Shown here: positions 4,690 to 36,415 of the stretch, in pieces
Position numbering within the stretch: position 1 is the stretch's first letter
Layout: every line of letters starts with the position of its first letter
Source of the DNA: Parasphingorhabdus sp.
GTDB lineage: Bacteria; Pseudomonadota; Alphaproteobacteria; Sphingomonadales; Sphingomonadaceae
DNA: 64,000 bases
Assembly: GCF_037621005.1 (NCBI RefSeq)
Contig: NZ_JASJLB010000001.1
Direction: 5' to 3' (one strand)
Translations under genes and position numbers: made by a program
The notes under the pieces: model-generated
What the model was told of the DNA's origin: nothing
Database searches by the model: none
What the model saw: the letters and a program-made list of their open reading frames with translations, nothing else

Positions 4690-7440
4690 GTGAACGAACA
4701 AACCACTCCACCGTCGCCGTCCAATATTGAAACGATAGACATCGTCGATGAGATGAAAACCAGCTACATGGATTATGCCATGTCGGTCATCGTCAGCCGC
4801 GCGTTACCTGACGTGCGCGATGGCCTGAAGCCGGTTCATCGTCGTATATTGTTCGCCGCGCAAGAAGGCGGCATGGTCGCCGGACGGCCCTATCGCAAAT
4901 GCGCGAAAATCGTCGGTGACGTGATGGGCAATTACCACCCCCATGGCGACAGCGCGATCTACATGGCGCTGGCACGGATGACCCAGGACTGGTCGATGCG
5001 CGTGCCTTTGATCGACGGACAGGGCAATTTTGGTTCGATGGACCCCGATATGCCGGCATCGATGCGTTACACCGAAGCGCGGCTGAACAAGGTTGCCAAT
5101 TTCCTGCTCAACGACCTCGACAAGGATACCGTCGATTTCGTACCCAATTATGATGGCAGCCGCGAAGAACCGAATGTTCTCCCCGCCCGCTTTCCAAACC
5201 TGCTGGTCAATGGTGCTGGCGGCATCGCGGTTGGCATGGCCACCAATATTCCGCCGCACAATCTCGGCGAGGTGATCAACGCCAGCCTTGCCTATATCGA
5301 AAATCCGGGAATCACGATTGACGAACTGATCGAAATTGTCCCCGGGCCAGATTTTCCGACTGCGCCCTTGATATTAGGTCAGTCCGGCGCCCGCGCTGCC
5401 TATAAGGATGGCCGCGGATCGATCATGATGCGCGCGCGTCATATCATCGAGGAAGGACGGGGCGACAAACGCTCCATCGTCCTGACATCGATTCCCTTTC
5501 AGGTCGGCAAATCCGGCCTAGTCGAAAAAATCGCCGAAGCCGCCAAGGACAAGCGTATCGAGGGCGTCTCCGACATTCGCGATGAATCCAGCCGCGCCGG
5601 TGTCCGGGTCGTTATCGAATTGAAGCGCGATGCGACCACTGATGTCGTGCTCAACCAGATTTGGCGCTTCACCCCTGCCCAGTCCAGCTTCCCGGCGAAT
5701 ATGCTTGCCATTCGCGGCGGCCGTCCCGAAGTTCTCACTTTGCGCGACATCATCGAATCCTTCGTCAAATTCCGCGAAGAAGTCATCACCCGGCGGACAA
5801 AATTTGAACTCAACAAGGCACGCGAACGGGCCCATATCTTGCTCGGCCTAGTGGTTGCGGTCACCAATATGGACGAGGTCGTCCGGATCATTCGTGGATC
5901 CTCAACCCCGGCAGAAGCCCGTGAATCGCTGCTGCATCGCGAGTGGCCGATTGCCGAGATCGCATCCTATATCCGTCTAGTCGAGGCGATTGAAACCGAG
6001 ATTGAGGGCGATAGCTACAAATTGTCCCAGGTTCAGGTGAAGGCGATTCTGGATCTGCGCCTGCAAAAGCTGACCGCGCTCGGCCGCGAAGAAATTGGCG
6101 ATGAACTGAAGCACCTAGCTGCTGCGATTGAGGAATATCTGGCAATATTGGCCGACCGCGAAAAACTTTATACCGTGATGCGCGAAGAGCTTGAAGAAGT
6201 GCGCGACGAATTTGCAACGCCGCGCCTGTCGGAAATCACCGCCGCCTGGGATGGTCTGGAAGATGAAGATCTGATGGAACGCTCGGAAATGGTCGTGACC
6301 GTTACCCATGGCGGCTATATCAAGCGGACGCCGCTTGACACATTCCGGGCCCAGCGCCGCGGTGGCAAAGGCCGCGCCGGCATGGCGACCAAGGATGAAG
6401 ATGCGATCACCGAGCTGTTCGTGACGTCAACACATACACCAGTCTTGTTCTTCTCGACCCATGGCAAAGTCTATCGACTCAAAGTCTGGAAACTCCCCGA
6501 AGGCGGACCACAAACCAAAGGCCGGCCTATGGTCAACCTGCTGCCACTGGCGGACGGGGAAGTAATTTCCACTGTCTTGCCATTGCCCGAAGACGAAGCG
6601 GAATGGGCCGCGCTGCATGTCATGTTTGCTACTGCCAAAGGCGGCGTCCGACGCAACAGCATGGACAGCTTCACCAATGTGCCGTCCAATGGCAAGTTTG
6701 CAATGAAATTTGACGAGGAAAGCGAGGATCGTCTGATCGGCGTGGAATTGCTGACCGACAATGATGATGTCTTGCTGGCGACCAGAAACGGCAAAGCCAT
6801 TCGCTTCGCTGGAGACGCCGTCCGCTCCTTCCAGAGCCGCACATCCACCGGTGTCCGCGGCATTGCCTTGAAGGGCGATGACGAGGTTATTTCGTTGTCG
6901 GTCTTGCGCGGTTTTGAAGCGTCGACCGAGGAACGCGACCAATATCTCAAGGCTGCACCCTGGAAAGACAATGAGAACGCACCGGAACTGTCCGCCGAGC
7001 GCATGACTGAATTTAGTGAAACCGAAGACTTCATCCTGACCGTCTGTGCCAATGGCTATGGCAAGCGCTCAAGCGCCTACGAATATCGCCAGTCCGGGCG
7101 CGGCGGTCAGGGTATATTGAATATCGACAATATCAAGCGCAATGGCACGGTTGTCGCCAGTTTCCGCGCAAGCAACGACGAGCAGGTCATGCTGGTCACC
7201 GACCAGGCCAAGCTCATTCGCATGAAGGTCGCGGATATGCGGGTGATTGGACGGAATAGCTCGGGCGTCAAATTGTTCGATGTCGCCAAAGGCGAACATG
7301 TCGTGGGCGCTGCCAAGATCGACGAAGAAGAAGAGCCAGAAAACGAAGCAGAAGATGCAGTGGTCGACGAAATGGTTGATCAGGGCATTTCTGATGGCGA
7401 AACGGCGACACCTGATGAGCCTGAAGATACAGCTGAATAA
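4690..7440 (+). CDS. gyrA: DNA gyrase subunit A
   Basis: 916 aa. It has the [13 protein letters not shown] region, the catalytic-Tyr context [11 protein letters not shown]-terminal beta-pinwheel repeats and an acidic tail. Confidence 0.97.
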
Positions 7441-20061: not shown

Positions 20062-23000
20062 TTAAGTCTGCGAAGCCTTATAATAGGACTGTAACGCGCG
20101 AACTTCAAGAGTCTGATCGCGCAGGGCCTCAATCGCCTGCATCGCGGCATTGCTGGCGGTGGCGGTTGTATAGATAGGAATTTTGCCAACCAGCGCCGCC
20201 GCCCGGATCGATTTGGAATCCTTGAGCGACTGCCAGCCTTCGGTTGTATTGAAGATCAGATTGACATCGCCATCCTTGATCCGGTCGACGATATGGGGGC
20301 GTCCCTCGGCGACCTTGTTGACTTTCTCGACCTTGATCCCCCGTTCGGTCAGATAAGCCGCAGTTCCGGACGTAGCGATCAGACGGAAGCCAAGCTTCTC
20401 GGCCAGACGCGCTGCCGGTTCGATCACCTTCTTGTCGGTTTCCTTGACCGAAATGAAGATCGTCCCGCTATCGGGCAATATATTGCTCGCACCCAGTTGC
20501 GCCTTGGCAAAGGCAATCGGGAAATTCTGGTCGATGCCCATGACTTCGCCGGTCGATTTCATTTCCGGCGACAGCACCGGATCGACACCGGGGAAACGGT
20601 TGAACGGGAAGACCGCCTCCTTGACCGCGATATAGTCGATATGCCGGTTGATCACCGGCAAGTCCTTGAGCTTCTCTCCGGCCATCACCCGCGATGCGAT
20701 CTTGGCAATCGGAACGCCGATCGCCTTGGCGACAAAAGGCACCGTTCGGCTGGCACGGGGATTGACCTCGATCAGATAGACTTCGCCGTCCTTGACCGCG
20801 AACTGGATGTTCATCAGCCCCTTGACCTTCAGACCGAAAGCCAGCGCTTCGGTCTGCCGCTCCATTTCGGCGATGATGTCATCGCTAAGATTATAAGGCG
20901 GAATCGTGCACGCGCTGTCGCCCGAGTGGACCCCAGCTTCCTCTATATGCTGGAGCACGCCGCAAACCACGACTTCGTCGCCGTCGCAGATCGCATCGAC
21001 ATCGACTTCGATCGCATCGCGCAGATATTTGTCGACCAGCACCGGACTGTCACCCGACACCTGTACCGCGGTATTGATATAATCTTCCAGCTGGGCCGGG
21101 CCGTCGACAATTTCCATCGCCCGCCCGCCAAGCACGAAACTTGGCCGGATCAATACCGGATAGCCGATACGTTCGGCGATTTTCACCGCTTCGTCGCGGG
21201 TCCGGGCCATGCCATTTTCCGGCTGCTTGAGTTTCAACTTGTGGACCAGCTTGGCAAAACGCTCGCGGTCTTCGGCCAGATCGATCGCATCCGGCGAGGT
21301 GCCGAGGATCGGAATGCCGGCATCTTCCAGCGCCTGCGCCAGTTTCAGCGGGGTTTGCCCGCCAAATTGAACAACCACGCCAACCAGTTCGCCCGATTGC
21401 TTTTCGACATGCAAGATTTCCAGCACATCTTCGGCAGTCAGCGGCTCGAAATAGAGCCGGTCAGATGTGTCATAATCGGTCGACACGGTTTCCGGATTGC
21501 AGTTGACCATGATCGTTTCATAGCCCGCTTCCGAAAGCGCATAGCAGGCGTGGCAACAGCAATAATCGAACTCAATCCCCTGCCCGATCCGGTTTGGACC
21601 GCCGCCGAGAATGATGATTTTCTTGCGATCCGATGGCTGCGCCTCGCATTCCGGCGCGCCGAAAATCGGCGCTTCATAGGTCGAGTACATATAAGGCGTC
21701 TTGGCTTCAAATTCTGCTGCACAAGTGTCGATCCGTTTGTACACCGGCCGCACACCCAGCTTGTGACGCAAGGTCCGGACATCGGATTCGGTCGTTGCCC
21801 CCGCCATGGCGGCAAGCGCGTCATGAACCAGCCCGCGTCCGCCAGCGACGGCTCGCCCGGCTCCGCCGGCAATATGGACCGAATCAATCGCCAGTTTGGC
21901 CAGTCGCTGATCGGAAAAGCCCATGGATTTCAGCTTGCGCAAGGCTTGCGCATCATTCGGCAGACCATTGTCTATCACGCCCTGCTCGGCATCGACGATT
22001 TCGCGAATTCTGGCCAGAAACCAGGGATCGAAACCGGCAATGGCATGGATTTCCGCATCAGTAAAACCTTCGCGCATCGCTTGGGCGGCAACTAGCAGAC
22101 GGTCCGGGGTCGCCCGGGCAAGAGCGGCGGCGATATCGTCGCGGTCCGCCCCTTCGAGCTCCACTACACGGTTGAAGCCGTCCAGCCCGGTTTCCAGCCC
22201 ACGCAGCGCTTTCTGCATCGATTCATGGATATTGCGGCCAATCGCCATGACTTCACCGACTGACTTCATCGCGGTCGACAGCAATGGCTCTGCGCCCTTG
22301 AACTTCTCGAAGGCAAAGCGCGGAATCTTGGTGACTATATAATCAATCGTCGGCTCGAACGACGCCGGGGTGGCGCCGGTAATGTCATTCTCGATCTCGT
22401 CGAGCGTATAGCCAACCGCCAGTTTCGCGGCGACGCTGGCGATCGGGAAGCCGGTCGCCTTGGACGCCAGCGCAGAGGAGCGCGACACCCGCGGGTTCAT
22501 TTCGATAACGACCAGCCGGCCATCCTTCGGATTGACCGCAAACTGCACGTTCGATCCACCGGTTTCGACACCAATTTCACGCAGCACCGCAATGCTGGCG
22601 TTGCGCATGATCTGATATTCCTTGTCGGTCAGGGTCAGCGCCGGCGCAACGGTGATGCTGTCCCCGGTATGCACGCCCATCGGATCAACATTTTCGATCG
22701 AGCAGATGATGATGCAATTATCCTTCTTGTCGCGGACAACCTCCATCTCATATTCTTTCCAGCCGATAATCGATTCCTCGATCAGCACCTCGTTGGTCGG
22801 CGAGGCTTCAAGGCCCGTACCGACAATATGCATGAATTCTTCTTTATTATAGGCAACGCCGCCGCCAGCCCCGCCCATGGTGAAGCTCGGCCGCATGATC
22901 GCTGGCAGACCAATTTCTTCCAGCGCCTTCATGGCGTCTTCCATATTATGGGCAATCGCCGAACACGGGCTTTCTAGACCGATCTTGGTCATCGCGGTCT

Positions 23001-23397
23001 TGAATTTCTCGCGGTCCTCGGCCTTGTCGATCGCCTCGGCATCAGCCCCAATCATCTGCACGCCATATTTTTCGAGCACGCCCATTTTGTTGAGCGTCAG
23101 TGCCGTGTTCAGCGCCGTCTGCCCACCCATGGTCGGCAGGATCGCGTCGGGGCGTTCCTTCTCGATAATCTTGGCGACTATCTCGGGTGTAATCGGTTCA
23201 ATATAGGTCGCATCAGCCATTTCCGGGTCGGTCATGATCGTCGCCGGATTCGAGTTAACCAGGATGATCCGGTAACCCTCCTCCTTCAGCGCCTTGCACG
23301 CCTGCGTGCCGCTATAGTCAAACTCGCAGGCCTGGCCGATGATGATCGGGCCAGCGCCTATGATAAGGATGGATTTTATGTCAGTTCTTTTGGGCAT
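20062..23397 (-). CDS. carB: Carbamoyl-phosphate synthase large subunit
   Basis: 1111 aa. Starts [30 protein letters not shown] and has duplicated ATP-grasp halves plus a C-terminal MGS-like domain. Confidence 0.98.
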
Positions 23398-24029
23398 TAA
23401 TGTTCATCCAAGTTGGCGCTTTCGGCCACTACGACTCGAACGTCTTCGTTCGGACCGTGTTTGAGAAGGCCAAGAAAGACTTTGCCTCCGATTCCAATGA
23501 GGTTTTGAAGCAGCCAATCCCATATCTTGGGAAGGTCAGACAAGAGTTCAGCTTTGCTTTTCTCAAAATCCCGACCGAAACTCTCCAAATAGGGGTTCCA
23601 TTCATGAAGCCACTTGTGAGACCGGCGATAAATCGCTCGCACATCATCAACCGTTAAATTTATTTCCAGCCTCTTCACTATGTGATTTGAAACTCTAGGA
23701 TCACTGCCTAAAGGTGGGTTGTCTCTTCTGAATGACCTTGGGAAAACCAACTCTTTTTGCTTCGGCAGCTTAGCAAATTTTTTATCGGCATTCCATTGAC
23801 CGCGAGCATCTCTCGGGATCTTCTTTAAACCGTTATCCAACGCTACTAAACAACCGAATGCGAAACGCTCTATGGATTTCCGTATATGAAAAGCACTGGT
23901 TTCGAGGACTGCAAAGTCAGAATTAGCCTCTCGATGCAGGTTGTCTATTATTTCGTATCTAGCTCTAATATTTATTAACAACGATTGATACTTCCGATGC
24001 GGGGAAGGTTTTTCGACCATAGCCATCAC
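23397..24029 (-). CDS. Hypothetical protein (low-GC orphan between the RraB-like gene and carB)
   Basis: 210 aa (GTG 24029, or ATG 24026). My hand count gives ~44% G+C over 23401-24000. Net basic (18 R + 17 K vs 14 D + 14 E). No TM segment and no family recognised. Contains [12 protein letters not shown] (R-x5-H). Its stop overlaps the carB start (TAATG) and its start overlaps the upstream stop. Confidence 0.65.
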
Positions 24030-24403
24030 GCCGGATTCTCGTCAGAAATCTCGCCATTTTCGTTGCATGCAAAACAACCCCAACCATCATGGTCGATGTC
24101 ATATTCGGTTTCGATCTCGAGGCATTTGCGCGTCAGTTCTCGGATCGTTTCCCGCTTGGTATCCAGATCAATCTGCAGCTCGATCACCCACTCGTCATCC
24201 TCATTGGTGACCAGCGCCGAGCGGAAGCCCCATTTTGCCGCGTCATTCTTCAGCTTGTTGAGATCGGAAACCGCACCGACAAATTGCACGTTAATCTCGC
24301 GCACAACATGAGAAAAATCGCCGCCTGCGGCCATATTTTGCAGGATTTCGTCATCAATCGCCCATTCTTCGGCAAGATGTTCAGGATCAATTGCGCCGCT
24401 CAT
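24026..24403 (-). CDS. RraB-like protein (regulator of ribonuclease activity B family)
   Basis: I use ATG 24403 (MSGAIDPEHL...), giving 125 aa, rather than the track start 24520, which lies inside carA. The layout GDFSHVVREINVQFVG...AAKWGF...WVIELQ...YDIDHDGWG parallels E. coli RraB (...YDGWGTYF). Strongly acidic (30 D+E vs 10 K+R). ATGA overlap with the carA stop. Confidence 0.65.
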   Translation of the reverse strand: MSGAIDPEHLAEEWAIDDEILQNMAAGGDFSHVVREINVQFVGAVSDLNKLKNDAAKWGFRSALVTNEDDEWVIELQIDLDTKRETIRELTRKCLEIETEYDIDHDGWGCFACNENGEISDENPA

Positions 24404-25596
24404 TGGCTCAGCCCCCCCACAAATTTCTCGAACAGATAGAAACTGTCCTGCGGTCCAGGACTCGCCTCGGGGTGATATTGCACGCCAAAGGCGCGTTTGC
24501 CGATGATTTCGATGCCGCAATTGCTGCCGTCGAACAGGCTTTTGTGGGTCTCGTGAATATTGTCGGGCAGCGTTTCGCTGTCCACCGCAAAACCATGATT
24601 CATGCTGGTAATCTCGACCAGACCTTCGGTCTCGTCCCAGCCGCCGCCGATCCGCTGCACCGGATGATTGGCGCCGCGATGGCCCTGGTGCATTTTCACC
24701 GTCTTGGCGCCCGCCGCCAGCGCCAGCATCTGATGACCAAGACAGATGCCGAACAGCGGGATATCCGCTTCCAGCAATTGTTTGATCACTGGAACCGCAT
24801 AGACGCCAGTCGCCGCCGGATCGCCGGGGCCATTGGAGAGAAATACCCCTGCCGGTTCCAACTTCATGATTTCTTCAAACGAAGATTCGGCTTTAACTAC
24901 AGTGATTTTTGCTCCAGCATTCACAATATTTCTAAAGATATTGCGCTTCGCGCCATAATCAATCGCCACGACATGCGGACGGGTCGAAGATGCTTCCATC
25001 TCTTCCAGCGGCGCATAGCCATGACCCAGCCGCCACAGACCACCCTTGTCCCACAATTGGGTCTGGTGCCCGGTCACTTCCTTGGCCAGATCCATGCCTT
25101 CCAGCCCGGCCCAGGCCCGCGCCTTGCCGAGCAATTCGTCAATATCAAACTGGCCATCGGGATCATAAGCGATCACCGCATTGGGCGCTCCCGCTTCGCG
25201 GATCCGCCGGGTCAAAGCGCGGGTATCAACGCCGCTGATCCCGATCCGGCCATTTTCCGCCATCCACTGGTCAAACGGCTTCTGGTCGCGGAAATTGGAT
25301 GGCGCGGTAATATCCTCGCGGACGATGCAGCCCAGAGCATGCGGGCTGTCGGCCTCTACATCCTCGTCATTGGTTCCGGTATTGCCGATATGCGGGAAGG
25401 TGAAGGTCACGATCTGCCCGGCATAGCTAGGGTCGGTCATCACCTCCTGATAGCCGGTCATCGCGGTGTTGAAGCAGACTTCGCCAACCGCACTGCCCGT
25501 CGCGCCAAAGCCCCTGCCCCACACAATCGTACCATCGGCCAATACCAATATCCCTGTTGCACCCGCGGGAGCGTCGGGATTATGGGCATTGGTCAT
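24400..25596 (-). CDS. carA: Carbamoyl-phosphate synthase small (glutaminase) subunit
   Basis: 398 aa with the class-I amidotransferase nucleophile context PLFGICLGHQMLA. Confidence 0.97.
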   Translation of the reverse strand: MTNAHNPDAPAGATGILVLADGTIVWGRGFGATGSAVGEVCFNTAMTGYQEVMTDPSYAGQIVTFTFPHIGNTGTNDEDVEADSPHALGCIVREDITAPSNFRDQKPFDQWMAENGRIGISGVDTRALTRRIREAGAPNAVIAYDPDGQFDIDELLGKARAWAGLEGMDLAKEVTGHQTQLWDKGGLWRLGHGYAPLEEMEASSTRPHVVAIDYGAKRNIFRNIVNAGAKITVVKAESSFEEIMKLEPAGVFLSNGPGDPAATGVYAVPVIKQLLEADIPLFGICLGHQMLALAAGAKTVKMHQGHRGANHPVQRIGGGWDETEGLVEITSMNHGFAVDSETLPDNIHETHKSLFDGSNCGIEIIGKRAFGVQYHPEASPGPQDSFYLFEKFVGGLSQ

Positions 25597-33405: not shown

Positions 33406-34605
33406 TCAATAGAGGAGATGGTCTCTCAGCATCTGGCCCCACGCCTGCTCGCCTGCCGCTGCTATCGCCTCCAGATCATTCGCGTTCGAAGATGAATTCT
33501 CAATCCACTCCCGCAAGACCGGTCCACCGTTGATCACATCGAAAGCCAATCTGCCCTCTTCATATTCATAGGGAAAATCCCGCCACAGTTCATATTCGGG
33601 ATAGAGTGTTCCGATGGCTTTCAGTCCCAGGGCCTGAAGCCGCCAGGGCCGAAAAGATGCGTGATCATAAGATGGACCCTCAGCATGAATCTGCAAACCG
33701 TTGCACAATTGGCCCTGATGTTTGTGAAAAGTTGGTTCGAACCAGATTTCTCTCAGCACGCAGCCGTTCAGCCATTGCGGCGCCGTTCGCTGCATTTCCG
33801 CAATGACCGCTCGCGCATCAATATCCGGCGCACCAAATAGCTCCAAGGGTCGGGTGGTCCCGCGCCCTTCGGAAAGCGTGGTCCCTTCCAAAATCACAGT
33901 TCCTGCATAGGCACGCGCCATATTGATATTGGGTGCGTTAGGACTGGGATTTATCCAGATGCGATCTTCCGGCCAACCAAAACCGGGGCCTTCCGGCTGC
34001 CATCCCTGCATCGGGATGACCTTGTAATCTACATTCAGGTCAAAATGGCTGATCAGCCAACGCCCCATTTCCCCCATGGTCAGCCCATGCCTCATCGGCA
34101 TCGGAGCCGCGCCAACGAAACTTTCCCATCCTTCTTCGAGGAGCGTACCCTCGATCGGCCTGCCCGCTGGATTGGGTCGGTCCAGCACCCAGACCGACTT
34201 GCCATGCTCAGCAGCGGCTTCCAGCATATATCGCAATGTCGTGATGAATGTGTAGATTCGGCAACCCAGATCCTGAAGATCTATCAAGATGACGTCGAAT
34301 GTTTCCATCGATTGAGCCGTCGGCCGTCGGACTTCGCCATAGAGGCTGAAAACCGGAATATTGTGAACCGGGTCAAGATAGTCCGCAGTTTCGATCATAT
34401 TGTCCTGCTTGTCGCCGCGCAGACCATGTTGGGGACCAAATGCAGCGGTCAGGTTGATGTCATCAAGGGCTGACAACGCATCCAGACTGTGCACAAGATC
34501 GCGCGTCACCGAAGCTGGGTGCGCAAGCAACGCGACCCGTTTTCCCGCCAATGGCCTGCGCAGATCCGCATCTTCCATGAGCCTATCTATTCCAAATTTC
34601 ATCAA
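33406..34605 (-). CDS. DUF1343 family protein (NamZ-like exo-beta-N-acetylmuramidase)
   Basis: 399 aa. MMKFGIDRL...LAGKRVALLAHPASV... and overall similarity to DUF1343 as I recall it. The start is TTG 34605 or ATG 34602. Either one overlaps the stop of the upstream gene. Confidence 0.8.
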   Translation of the reverse strand: MMKFGIDRLMEDADLRRPLAGKRVALLAHPASVTRDLVHSLDALSALDDINLTAAFGPQHGLRGDKQDNMIETADYLDPVHNIPVFSLYGEVRRPTAQSMETFDVILIDLQDLGCRIYTFITTLRYMLEAAAEHGKSVWVLDRPNPAGRPIEGTLLEEGWESFVGAAPMPMRHGLTMGEMGRWLISHFDLNVDYKVIPMQGWQPEGPGFGWPEDRIWINPSPNAPNINMARAYAGTVILEGTTLSEGRGTTRPLELFGAPDIDARAVIAEMQRTAPQWLNGCVLREIWFEPTFHKHQGQLCNGLQIHAEGPSYDHASFRPWRLQALGLKAIGTLYPEYELWRDFPYEYEEGRLAFDVINGGPVLREWIENSSSNANDLEAIAAAGEQAWGQMLRDHLLY

Positions 34606-35147
34606 CGTCCTGCTGCCTCCATTTTAAACACAAAACAATCTCGATGGTGGAAATCGGGGCTATCTGCGGGATGCCGTAAAGCCCAGAGAGATTTCTTTCC
34701 ATTTCGCATTTCGATGACCGCAGACAGGCCCGCATCAAGTTCGTCGTGCATCCAGATATCCGGTAATCTAATGGTCACTTCAATAGCCATATGTGTGTCA
34801 CTGAAATCCATAAATATTTCAGGTGAATGAGCCAGTGCAACCTGATCCATTCCGTCGCGATAGCTATGGAAGCTATACGCCGCCCAGTTACCCGATGGAG
34901 AAAAGTTAAATTCGCAGTAGCGCTGTTTTCCTTTTTCGCTGAGAAATAATTCGAAGCAAGTATTTTGCCACAAATTATCCATGCGCTGGGACTGGCCCAG
35001 ATTGTCTGGCAGTTTGACTTCTTCAACATTCCCAACTGCATGATATCTCAGCCATATGGTTCCAGCTTTGGTCATCGACCATTCGACCGTGATTTGCTCG
35101 ATGGCAGATACCGGAGTTAATGGATGGCATTGCAAGTTCAAACGCAT
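34602..35147 (-). CDS. Hypothetical protein, DOMON/CBM9-like
   Basis: I prefer ATG 35147 ([10 protein letters not shown]...), giving 181 aa. The track start 35264 would run into the divergent tyrS. NTCFELFL...[15 protein letters not shown] resembles the CBM9/DOMON-like signature. Confidence 0.5.
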
Positions 35148-35185
35148 ATTGCGACTTTCGTTGTCCCCATGTAACGGACCAATCC

Positions 35186-36415
35186 ATGACCAATTATCAA
35201 TCTGATCTCCTGCGTCTACTGAATGATCGCGGCTATATCCACCAGTTAACCGATGCTGACACATTGGATTCTCTTGCCACGAAAAGCATTATTCCCGGCT
35301 ATATCGGATTTGATGCTACCGCCGATTCGCTCCACGTCGGCAATCTCGTGTCGATCATGTTGCTTCGCCGTCTGCAGCAGGCCGGACATAAGCCGATCGT
35401 TGTGATGGGCGGCGGCACGACCAAGGTTGGCGACCCTTCCGGCAAGGATGAAGTCCGTAAATTGCTCGATGATGAGCGGATCGAGGCCAATATTGCATCC
35501 ATTCGAACCTGTTTTGAACGCTTTCTAACCTTTGGCGACGGCCCAACCGATGCCATACTTGTCAACAATGCCGAGTGGCTGGACAAGCTGGAATACATAC
35601 CCTTTTTGCGGGAGGTCGGGCAGCATTTCACGATCAACCGAATGCTGACCTTTGACTCGGTCAAGCTGAGGCTGGAACGAGAACAACCGCTGACCTTTCT
35701 TGAATTCAACTATATGATTCTTCAAGCTTATGACTTTCTGGAATTGTCGCGCCAATATGGTTGCGCATTGCAGCTAGGTGGTTCTGATCAATGGGGTAAT
35801 ATCGTCAATGGCATCGAACTCGGCCGGCGTATCGACGGCGCAGAGCTGTTCGGCATAACGACACCGCTGATCACGAAATCCGATGGCGCAAAAATGGGCA
35901 AATCGGTCGATGGCGCCATCTGGTTGAACGCCGATCGACTAAGCCCATATGATTATTGGCAGTTTTGGCGAAACACCGATGACCGGGATGTTGGCAAATT
36001 CATGTGCTTGTTCACCGATCTGGATTTGAATGAAATTACTCGTCTGGAATCGATGCAGGGATCTGAGATCAACGAGGCCAAAAAGATTCTAGCGAATGCT
36101 GCGACGCGCTTAGCCCATGGCGAGAAAGCGGCAAAAGAGGCTGCGGATACCGCCCAGAAAACTTTTGAGCAAGGCGGTGCCGGGGGTGAATTGCCGGTCT
36201 ATTTGGTTGGCTCGGAAGATATATCCATAATCGACGCCTTGGTTGGCATCGGTTTTTGTGCATCCAATGGGGAAGCAAAACGACTTGTCGCCGGCGGTGG
36301 CGCCCGTGTGGATGATGAACCCATAAAGGCCCCAGGGCATATGATTCCCATTACCGATTTGGATGTAAAAATTTCGGCAGGAAAAAAGAAGCACGGCTTG
36401 CTCCGCAAATCCTGA
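35186..36415 (+). CDS. tyrS: Tyrosine--tRNA ligase
   Basis: Starts at ATG 35186 ([20 protein letters not shown]). Class-I motifs SLHVGNL (HIGH-like) and KMGKS (KMSKS-like), plus a C-terminal S4-like domain. Confidence 0.96.

Follow-up and report, generated by a model that had tools for sequence, protein, structure and literature searches.

Single-gene HEPN abortive-infection (Abi) proteins are soluble proteins of about 200–350 amino acids (aa), encoded by solitary AT-rich genes that occur sporadically on plasmids and prophages and that have no antitoxin. Variable DNA between carA and carB is represented by the intervening region of Neisseria and by an extra open reading frame (ORF) in Pseudomonas aeruginosa (cases that our literature search did not retrieve), and 'replacement' flexible genomic islands are flanked by conserved genes through which their variants are exchanged. 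Here we analyse a stretch of 64,000 nucleotides (nt) from Parasphingorhabdus sp. (hereafter the window; contig NZ_JASJLB010000001.1 of assembly GCF_037621005.1), in which a minus-strand gene, X2 (23397–24029 (−)), lies between carA and carB together with a second gene, X1. The best explanation of the data is that X2 is a functional accessory gene and not a component of carAB, and that its product, which is soluble, basic and some 200 aa long, belongs to a widespread unannotated family. More specifically, X2 could be a stand-alone HEPN-like effector of the defence type that is carried as a swappable cassette inside the operon, a reading that we put forward tentatively and to which we give slightly less than an even chance.

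The X2 ORF has 210 codons when read from a GTG at 24029; gene callers favour an ATG at 24026 (209 aa). Residues are numbered here from this ATG, which gives values lower by one than the GTG-based numbering (for example, H141 = H142). An earlier note on this DNA, made from the sequence alone, had described the 210-codon minus-strand ORF, and its observations on the gene stood up well. Its hand count of about 265 G+C over positions 23401–24000 was reproduced exactly (265 of 600 nt, 44.2%), the neighbouring carA and carB are GC-richer as it had stated (58.0% and 57.4%), and the product is net basic with the same residue counts (18 R + 17 K versus 14 D + 14 E; isoelectric point (pI) 9.5). The motif RSHKWLH was found at residues 136–142 in GTG numbering (nt 23624..23604). 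The windowed GC calculation that the note had proposed shows that X2 is the lowest-GC 633-nt stretch of the 64-kb window (0.439–0.449; window mean, 0.549; standard deviation, 0.031), with a G+C content at third codon positions (GC3) of 0.445 compared with 0.67–0.70 in carA and carB. X2 is real and constrained by purifying selection, given that it has 22 close homologues at 50–86% identity and a ratio of non-synonymous to synonymous substitution rates (dN/dS) of 0.28 against the orthologue of Sphingorhabdus YGSMI21, a constraint weaker than that on carA (0.13), X1 (0.07) and carB (0.07).

Every close relative of X2 (≥50% identity) whose neighbourhood was examined (12 loci) is located in the carA–carB spacer, across several sphingomonad genera. 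The gene order is carA-orf138-X1-X2-carB in Sphingorhabdus YGSMI21, carA-X2-carB in Erythrobacter, Sphingomonas dw_22 and a metagenome-assembled genome (MAG), and carA-X2-carB and carA-X2-DUF559-carB (with the DUF559 gene reversed) in two further metagenome lineages. Among 185,579 species genomes, five X2 loci were identified, three of them sphingomonad. A metagenome scan with X1 proved decisive; it yielded 43 marine loci (L021–L063) from the same genus-level population, with carB 88–97% identical. X2 was absent from 38 of the 39 related loci with a readable X1–carB slot, and the sole locus that carries it has an allele only 52% identical to the window X2 between flanks that are 97% identical, indicating that X2 is an accessory cassette that is exchanged horizontally, in every case at this position, and not an obligate partner of X1. 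The GC3 of X2 was 0.27–0.44 below that of the flanks in all seven sphingomonad loci examined (for example, 0.49 versus 0.87), and X2 identity roughly tracks carA and carB identity (r = 0.67 and 0.42, respectively), with discordant cases. A recent single horizontal transfer into this genome is ruled out, as several genera have the X2 clade in this spacer, with a divergence that roughly follows that of the flanks; pure vertical descent is likewise ruled out by the discordant loci L039 and L011. The conclusion that X2 is accessory, horizontally mobile and a cassette in an in-operon hotspot is thus strongly supported. The earlier note had proposed an accessory, horizontally moving gene in an essential operon and a survey of the spacer for patchiness; the near-complete absence from related loci, the divergent allele, the low GC3 and the relatives on mobile elements all agree with that proposal, and unrelated cassettes take the place of X2 in the loci that lack it.

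The constant address in the spacer (12 of 12 examined loci, several genera), the predicted translational coupling to carB and the position of one distant family member after pyrF could be taken to mean that X2 has a lineage-specific housekeeping role, as a partner or regulator of either carbamoyl-phosphate synthase or pyrimidine metabolism. However, X2 is missing from nearly all close relatives even though their carA and carB stay 85–97% identical, the species genomes contain three sphingomonad loci only, distant members are found in a phage, on plasmids and in unrelated neighbourhoods, the composition of the gene is foreign in every host, and many unrelated genes occupy the same slot. We regard a housekeeping role in carAB as the least probable of all explanations, and it is essentially excluded by the patchy presence, mobile contexts and foreign composition.

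The operon around X2 comprises carA (24400–25596 (−)), which encodes the glutamine amidotransferase subunit of carbamoyl-phosphate synthase, X1 (24026–24403 (−)), X2, and carB (20062–23397 (−)), which encodes the large subunit. The earlier note had placed one orphan gene between carA and carB; that gene is present, but the spacer contains two, the overlooked X1 lying upstream of X2 and encoding a 125-aa acidic RraB-domain protein (Pfam RraB E = 2.9e-11; pI 4.15). Stop and start codons overlap at every junction: the carA stop with the X1 start (ATGA), X1 with X2 (GTGA/TGATG; 4 nt) and the X2 stop with the carB ATG (TAATG). As X2 showed neither an internal promoter or terminator nor flanking repeats, the gene is most simply read, from sequence, as co-transcribed and translationally coupled in carA-X1-X2-carB. 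X1 itself keeps its place in the spacer in each of the 43 related metagenome loci (78–98% identity) and evolves like a core gene. The adjacency of X1 and X2, their 4-nt overlap and opposite charges (pI 4.15 versus 9.5), the occurrence of the same pair in Sphingorhabdus YGSMI21 and the family name of RraB, a protein inhibitor of RNase E, would fit a toxin–antitoxin or RNase-inhibitor pair in which acidic X1 neutralizes basic X2. Yet X1 occurs without X2 in 42 of the 43 loci, 38 of which have a fully readable X1–carB slot, X2 in turn lacks X1 as a neighbour in six loci that come from five other sphingomonad sources (L001–L003, L008/L009 and L011) and in all distant contexts, and the core-like dN/dS of X1 (0.07) also speaks against such a pair. 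Obligate co-occurrence fails, which essentially excludes the pair and leaves it very improbable. X1 is a conserved resident of the carA–carB spacer in this lineage, not a partner of X2.

Two hypervariable junctions surround X1: slot A extends from carA to X1 and slot B from X1 to carB. Slot A is empty, nearly so (a few spacer bases, −4 to +5 nt) or occupied by an insert of 347–1107 nt, and slot B is empty (TAATG overlap; three loci) or measures 32 nt or 124–1438 nt. The cargo is usually a single co-oriented ORF that fills the slot (for example, L031:4322–5000 and 5379–6037; L033:3894–5000; L039:649–2086), with a GC content mostly of 0.39–0.47 compared with 0.58–0.62 for carB in most loci. At least 25 unrelated cargo families were found in the slots, two of them in slot A as well as in slot B. 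Among the families are RraB paralogues, putative lipoproteins, DUF559 endonuclease-like genes, VapC/PIN toxins and proteins of approximately 200–260 aa that have a membrane helix at the C terminus. The RraB-domain paralogues are variable cargo in the slot beside X1 (L044:5203–5571 and L029:5375–5821), one of them with a lipoprotein signal. Among 32 non-redundant occupied slot-B junctions, the cargo ATG overlaps the X1 stop in 22, and the cargo stop overlaps or abuts the carB ATG in 22. Some slot-B inserts are antisense to the operon; these are VapC/PIN genes (Pfam PIN E = 3e-9; L041:5703–6113 (−), L037:3660–4079 (−) and L047:5487–5906 (−)), presumably accompanied by VapB, and genes for DUF559 proteins, which are Vsr-like endonucleases (L048:5606–6067 (−), L030:1770–2150 (−) and L011:6580–6921 (−)).

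The borders of the cassettes contain copies of the flanking gene ends. An 88-nt copy of the carA 3′ end is located upstream of X1 in Sphingorhabdus YGSMI21 (E = 1e-26), shorter carA-3′ remnants follow X1 in three cargo types, and degenerate copies of the carB 5′ end (45–68 nt) follow slot-A cargo, lie within compound slot-B inserts and, in L011, come after X2. The duplicated carB 5′ end reads ATGCCCAAAAGAACTGACAT..., and some of the copies form mini-ORFs that end in an ATGA overlap with X1. Such flank-end copies were located at cassette borders in L007:5540–5627, L030:1538–1605, L041:5627–5679, L042:5378–5426, L043:5418–5454 and L011:6375–6393, and upstream of X1 in L031, L033, L035, L046, L047, L060 and L063. 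They look like scars of flank-anchored recombination, and because of them we infer a mechanism in which a cassette would be gained by recombination anchored in the conserved carA 3′ or carB 5′ end, with an illegitimate join on the opposite side, and later swaps would proceed by double crossovers in the carA and carB flanks. In related genomes (L008, L009 and L007), a DUF559 or GIY-YIG gene was also observed between yqeY and dnaG. Elsewhere in the window, the stretch with the second-lowest GC content (approximately 0.46; 34602–35264 (−)) is a 220-aa ORF between a gene of 399 aa and a tyrosyl-tRNA-synthetase-like gene; this ORF could represent a further accessory insertion.

X2 belongs to a conserved family. 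All 22 close homologues are 'hypothetical' and have no Pfam domain, and their alignment displays three near-invariant blocks (ETxAFHxRKxxE, PRDAxGQWNAD and YRRxHKWxHEWNPY). A profile search of 1.84 billion cluster representatives returned 439 proteins at E ≤ 1e-3, nearly all stand-alone and approximately 200 aa long, and a second search returned 211 clusters, every one unnamed. Scans of X2 against Pfam, NCBIfam and PADLOC gave no match, and the sole library family that matched was phrog_13799 (E = 3.3e-10), a family of unknown function. The statement in the earlier note that the ORF had no assignable family is thus correct as to names, but X2 is a member of a conserved, unannotated family with 439 cluster representatives. 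Residue conservation was counted in 94 diverse members (approximately 20% identity to X2), for which a Pfam scan gave scattered noise only. R49, E53, P96 and H141 are invariant (94/94), Y13, R23, E42, P145 and H175 are near-invariant (91–93/94), and N144 is lower (83/94). Two of the invariant residues lie on one face of helix 2, E42-x6-R49-K50-x2-E53 (E43-x6-R50-K51-x2-E54 in GTG numbering; 23868..23903 (−)), in which E42 is present in 91 and K50 in 81 of the 94 members. H141 is the last residue of the R-x5-H motif, R135-S-H137-K-W-L-H141 (R136, H138 and H142 in GTG numbering; 23604..23624 (−)).

This conservation bears on the possibility that X2 is a selfish or neutral passenger ORFan, which persists because the carA–carB junction tolerates insertions and recombination reseeds it. 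The slots are full of ORFans (17 of 20 cargo representatives had no Pfam match), selfish elements (VapC and DUF559) share the site, and the window copy carries an H175N substitution, all of which a passenger would explain. Against it stand the strong family-wide residue conservation at approximately 20% pairwise identity, the dN/dS of 0.28 and the recurrence of the family in a phage defence hotspot, which argues for a selected biochemical function. We consider a mere passenger quite improbable.

The AlphaFold2 model of X2, built on the 94-sequence alignment (predicted local distance difference test (pLDDT), 91.7; predicted template-modelling (pTM) score, 0.87), has helices at residues 9–32, 38–65, 126–138 and 150–173, an insert at 66–125, a loop at 139–149 and a three-stranded sheet at 174–202. 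The six best Foldseek matches in the PDB were all HepT HEPN toxins (7bxo, 5yep, 6m6w and 6m6u), with probabilities of 0.57–0.90 and target-normalized template-modelling (TM) scores of 0.52–0.59; a weaker, earlier model gave the same HepT cluster together with Csm6 and HI0074. The modelled helices and the HepT neighbours agree with the HEPN fold as defined previously (PMC3710099), with Foldseek E values of 0.3–1. In the model, H141-E-W-N-P is in the loop immediately past helix 3, and the invariant H141 is thereby located where the catalytic His of HEPN proteins sits (PMC3710099). HEPN proteins also have a conserved acidic residue in helix 2 near the active site, often as E-x3-[KR] (PMC3710099), compared with E-x6-R-K-x2-E in helix 2 of X2. 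At least one HEPN family retains the His and loses the Arg, other conserved basic residues substituting for it, and, as AbiV and Parep1/8 illustrate, a residue recruited from elsewhere can replace one that a family has lost from Rx4-6H (PMC3710099). In X2, the invariant His at the junction of helix 3 and the loop would face the invariant Arg/Glu face of helix 2, R49 and E53 being assumed to lie near H141. The key residue is this His with the helix-2 Arg/Glu pair, rather than R-x5-H as such. A HEPN-like fold is plausible on the basis of the model, membership of the HEPN superfamily is unproven, and an RNase activity may be proposed from the modelled site.

Distant relatives of X2 were found on several mobile elements. 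One family member, gp03 of Peduovirus vB_YpM_50, is located between gpA (with DUF3850) and the portal gene gpQ, and an identical gene (WP_021519103.1) occupies the same place in the P2-like prophages of 21 of 5426 complete Escherichia coli genomes. This protein is 34% identical to the central family member P0172 and is tied to X2 only through phrog_13799 (E = 3.3e-10). According to Rousset et al. 2022 (PMC9122126), the P2 gpA–gpQ interval is a validated anti-phage hotspot, and the Table S5 entry for this gene reads 'DUF3850/ASCH + hypothetical'; in the text covered here, no record of vB_YpM_50 gp03 or WP_021519103.1 being assayed was found. A 2026 preprint reports that most randomly picked unknown loci in the sister P4 hotspot are functional defences. 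Other family members are located near a large serine recombinase, on a Halomonas plasmid where the gene adjoins a Dcm methylase, and on a 6.6-kb MobQ plasmid that also carries a RelE/ParE module. The plasmid and phage matches came with P0172 as the tblastn query; X2 itself gave no match against plasmids and phages. The family occurs in defence-hotspot and mobile-element locations (P2 gpA–gpQ, plasmids, a serine recombinase and the slots shared with VapC/PIN and DUF559), an association and not a proof of function, from which a defence role may be suggested. The genes adjoining family members were searched for a conserved partner or a paralogue, and neither was found.

In two soil MAGs (L005:800–1393 (−), L004:1064–1805 (−); L005:5457–6233 (−)), an X2 homologue at 38–39% identity is convergent with a conserved gene of approximately 170–197 aa; a large serine recombinase is located within 3 kb, more unknown genes follow, and Pfam and PADLOC scans of the genes around these homologues gave no match. 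In a Sulfuricurvum MAG (L013:5009–6615), a family member of low GC content (0.26; GC3, 0.19) follows the pyrimidine-pathway gene pyrF, a neighbourhood that is probably a coincidence, and is itself followed by a gene for a 201-aa protein with a marginal PADLOC match to a '2TM effector' (E = 0.003).

Several observations weigh against a HEPN-like defence effector. Helical bundles align readily in structure searches, and the Foldseek E values of the X2 models were all ≥0.26, so that the HEPN link has no statistical significance; a search of BFVD gave nothing useful, with one 'HEPN domain-containing' phage protein at rank 41 (E = 3.3). A profile–profile comparison of the X2 family with 45 DUF86/HepT proteins, gathered with a synthetic consensus bait and representing the one HEPN family compared in this manner, gave a probability of 0.2% (hhalign). 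None of the Pfam HEPN models matched the 94 members (a single RiboL-PSP match, with E = 0.07, can be put down to noise), both X2 profiles drew a blank against PDB sequences, and X2, X1 and seven further family members had no match in PADLOC-DB v2.0.0 at E ≤ 1. The motif Arg is not a family trait: R135 is invariant in the 22-member sphingomonad clade, and the 94 members have R (33), K (24) or some other residue (37) at this position. HEPN proteins have a polar residue (N, D or H) directly after this Arg (PMC3710099), and the family fails in this respect, with Ser in X2 and Cys in 44, Leu in 16, Thr in 11 and Ser in 6 of the 94 members. At position 175, X2 of the window, alone among its close relatives, has an Asn codon (23502..23504 (−)), where the other 21 close relatives all have His, as do 91 of the 94 family members; the window gene could be either a functional variant or a copy that is disabled in part. 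The near-invariant H175 and the invariant Glu residues would also fit a metal site and leave room for a different chemistry. Finally, the distant chromosomal members are mostly solitary amid housekeeping genes with no known defence neighbour, and PADLOC on ten neighbours of family members gave one marginal 2TM match only.

The earlier note had suggested a HEPN-type RNase effector on the strength of the R-x5-H motif, with the caution that a single short motif can easily arise by chance. The caution was apt, as an Rx4-6H match is present in 88% of shuffled X2 sequences; the motif alone is therefore uninformative, and only conservation and structural position are informative. By these measures the suggestion fared unevenly: the His is invariant, the topology and the position of the His agree, and structure prediction followed by Foldseek, the check that the note had proposed, placed HepT toxins in the best six positions, but the Arg is R or K in just 57 of 94 members, none of the structural matches is significant, no Pfam HEPN model matches, and the proposed profile–profile check turned out negative for HepT. 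The HEPN/RNase reading has moved up from a chance motif to a structurally coherent, statistically unproven hypothesis.

We rank as the main rival a protein that has the same HEPN-like fold, or a generic helical bundle, and that is no RNase: it would bind a ligand or nucleotide, or act in a metal-dependent manner through E42, E53, H141 and H175, and may serve a role on mobile elements such as counter-defence, exclusion or regulation. The family invariants (R49, E53, P96 and H141) and near-invariants (E42 and H175) without a canonical Rx4-6H are consistent with this proposal, as are the absence of significant similarity to any nuclease, the diiron four-helix protein nigerythrin (1yux) among the weak Foldseek matches of the X2 model and the frequency of non-catalytic binding modules among HEPN domains (PMC3710099). 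Conversely, catalytic HepT toxins take all six top places among the structural neighbours, with no DinB-like or ferritin-like bundle among them, the invariant His is exactly at the position of the HEPN catalytic His, and the window X2 tolerates H175N under purifying selection, which argues against H175 as an essential metal ligand. On balance, a function of this kind seems rather unlikely to us. If X2 is instead a HEPN-like effector, it would be a metal-independent RNase that, like the single-gene HEPN Abi proteins, acts in defence or abortive infection, that is held inactive until triggered and that rides as a cassette in the carA-X1-carB hotspot, co-transcribed and translationally coupled with its host operon.

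The same data may be read more broadly. The carA–carB junction of Sphingomonadales may be an operon-embedded cassette hotspot, in which unrelated small genes (defence genes, toxin–antitoxin genes, RraB paralogues, lipoproteins and ORFans) are inserted stop-to-start, which leaves the essential operon unbroken and lets it express them, and pass from species to species through homology-anchored recombination on one side, with carA-3′ and carB-5′ scars left behind. The phrog_13799/X2 family would in turn be a new, structurally elaborated HEPN-like single-gene anti-phage effector with a range from marine sphingomonads to the P2 prophages of E. coli, in which a rewired active site may combine the His at the end of helix 3 with an Arg/Glu pair donated by helix 2. 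That both of these propositions hold together is possible but somewhat doubtful. If the family is an RNase-type defence effector, it constitutes an unannotated single-gene system that is missed by Pfam and PADLOC, with WP_021519103.1 as its E. coli representative. Of greater weight, perhaps, is the genomic setting: in one genus-level marine population, low-GC genes that are unrelated to each other, dozens in number, are swapped at two precise, translationally coupled slots within the essential carAB operon and leave scars from its flanks. The locus thus illustrates in compact natural form how a core operon can house and express accessory genes. If the hotspot reading is true, accessory genes would be hosted in this manner without the need for an integrase or a promoter. 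The conserved ends of carA and carB also offer a handy bait locus for mining accessory, defence and ORFan genes in metagenomes.

X2 and its setting resemble several described systems in part. With respect to location, a family member occupies the same P2 gpA–gpQ hotspot as the cargo genes old, tin, DUF4238 and others described by Rousset et al. 2022 (PMC9122126). The single-gene HEPN Abi proteins (AbiD/AbiF Abi_2, AbiV, AbiU2 and the stand-alone families of Anantharaman et al. 2013) are those to which we liken X2, although their Pfam models match neither X2 nor its 93 relatives. In structure, the nearest neighbours of the X2 model are the HepT toxins (DUF86, PF01934; type VII HepT–MntA; Shewanella SO_3166; 5yep, 6m6w and 7bxo). 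Unlike HepT, with which it shares no profile similarity, X2 is approximately 80 aa longer, with a 60-residue insert between helices 2 and 3 and a C-terminal β-sheet, has no adjacent MntA nucleotidyltransferase and lacks the RxxxxHxY motif with its AMPylated Tyr, the motif Arg of X2 not being family-wide. The variable DNA between carA and carB of Neisseria and P. aeruginosa shares with the present locus a tolerance of accessory DNA between the two genes. In contrast to it, the inserts here are single co-oriented ORFs fused stop-to-start, and a single genus-level population offers more than 25 alternatives for the two slots on either side of a conserved RraB-like gene.

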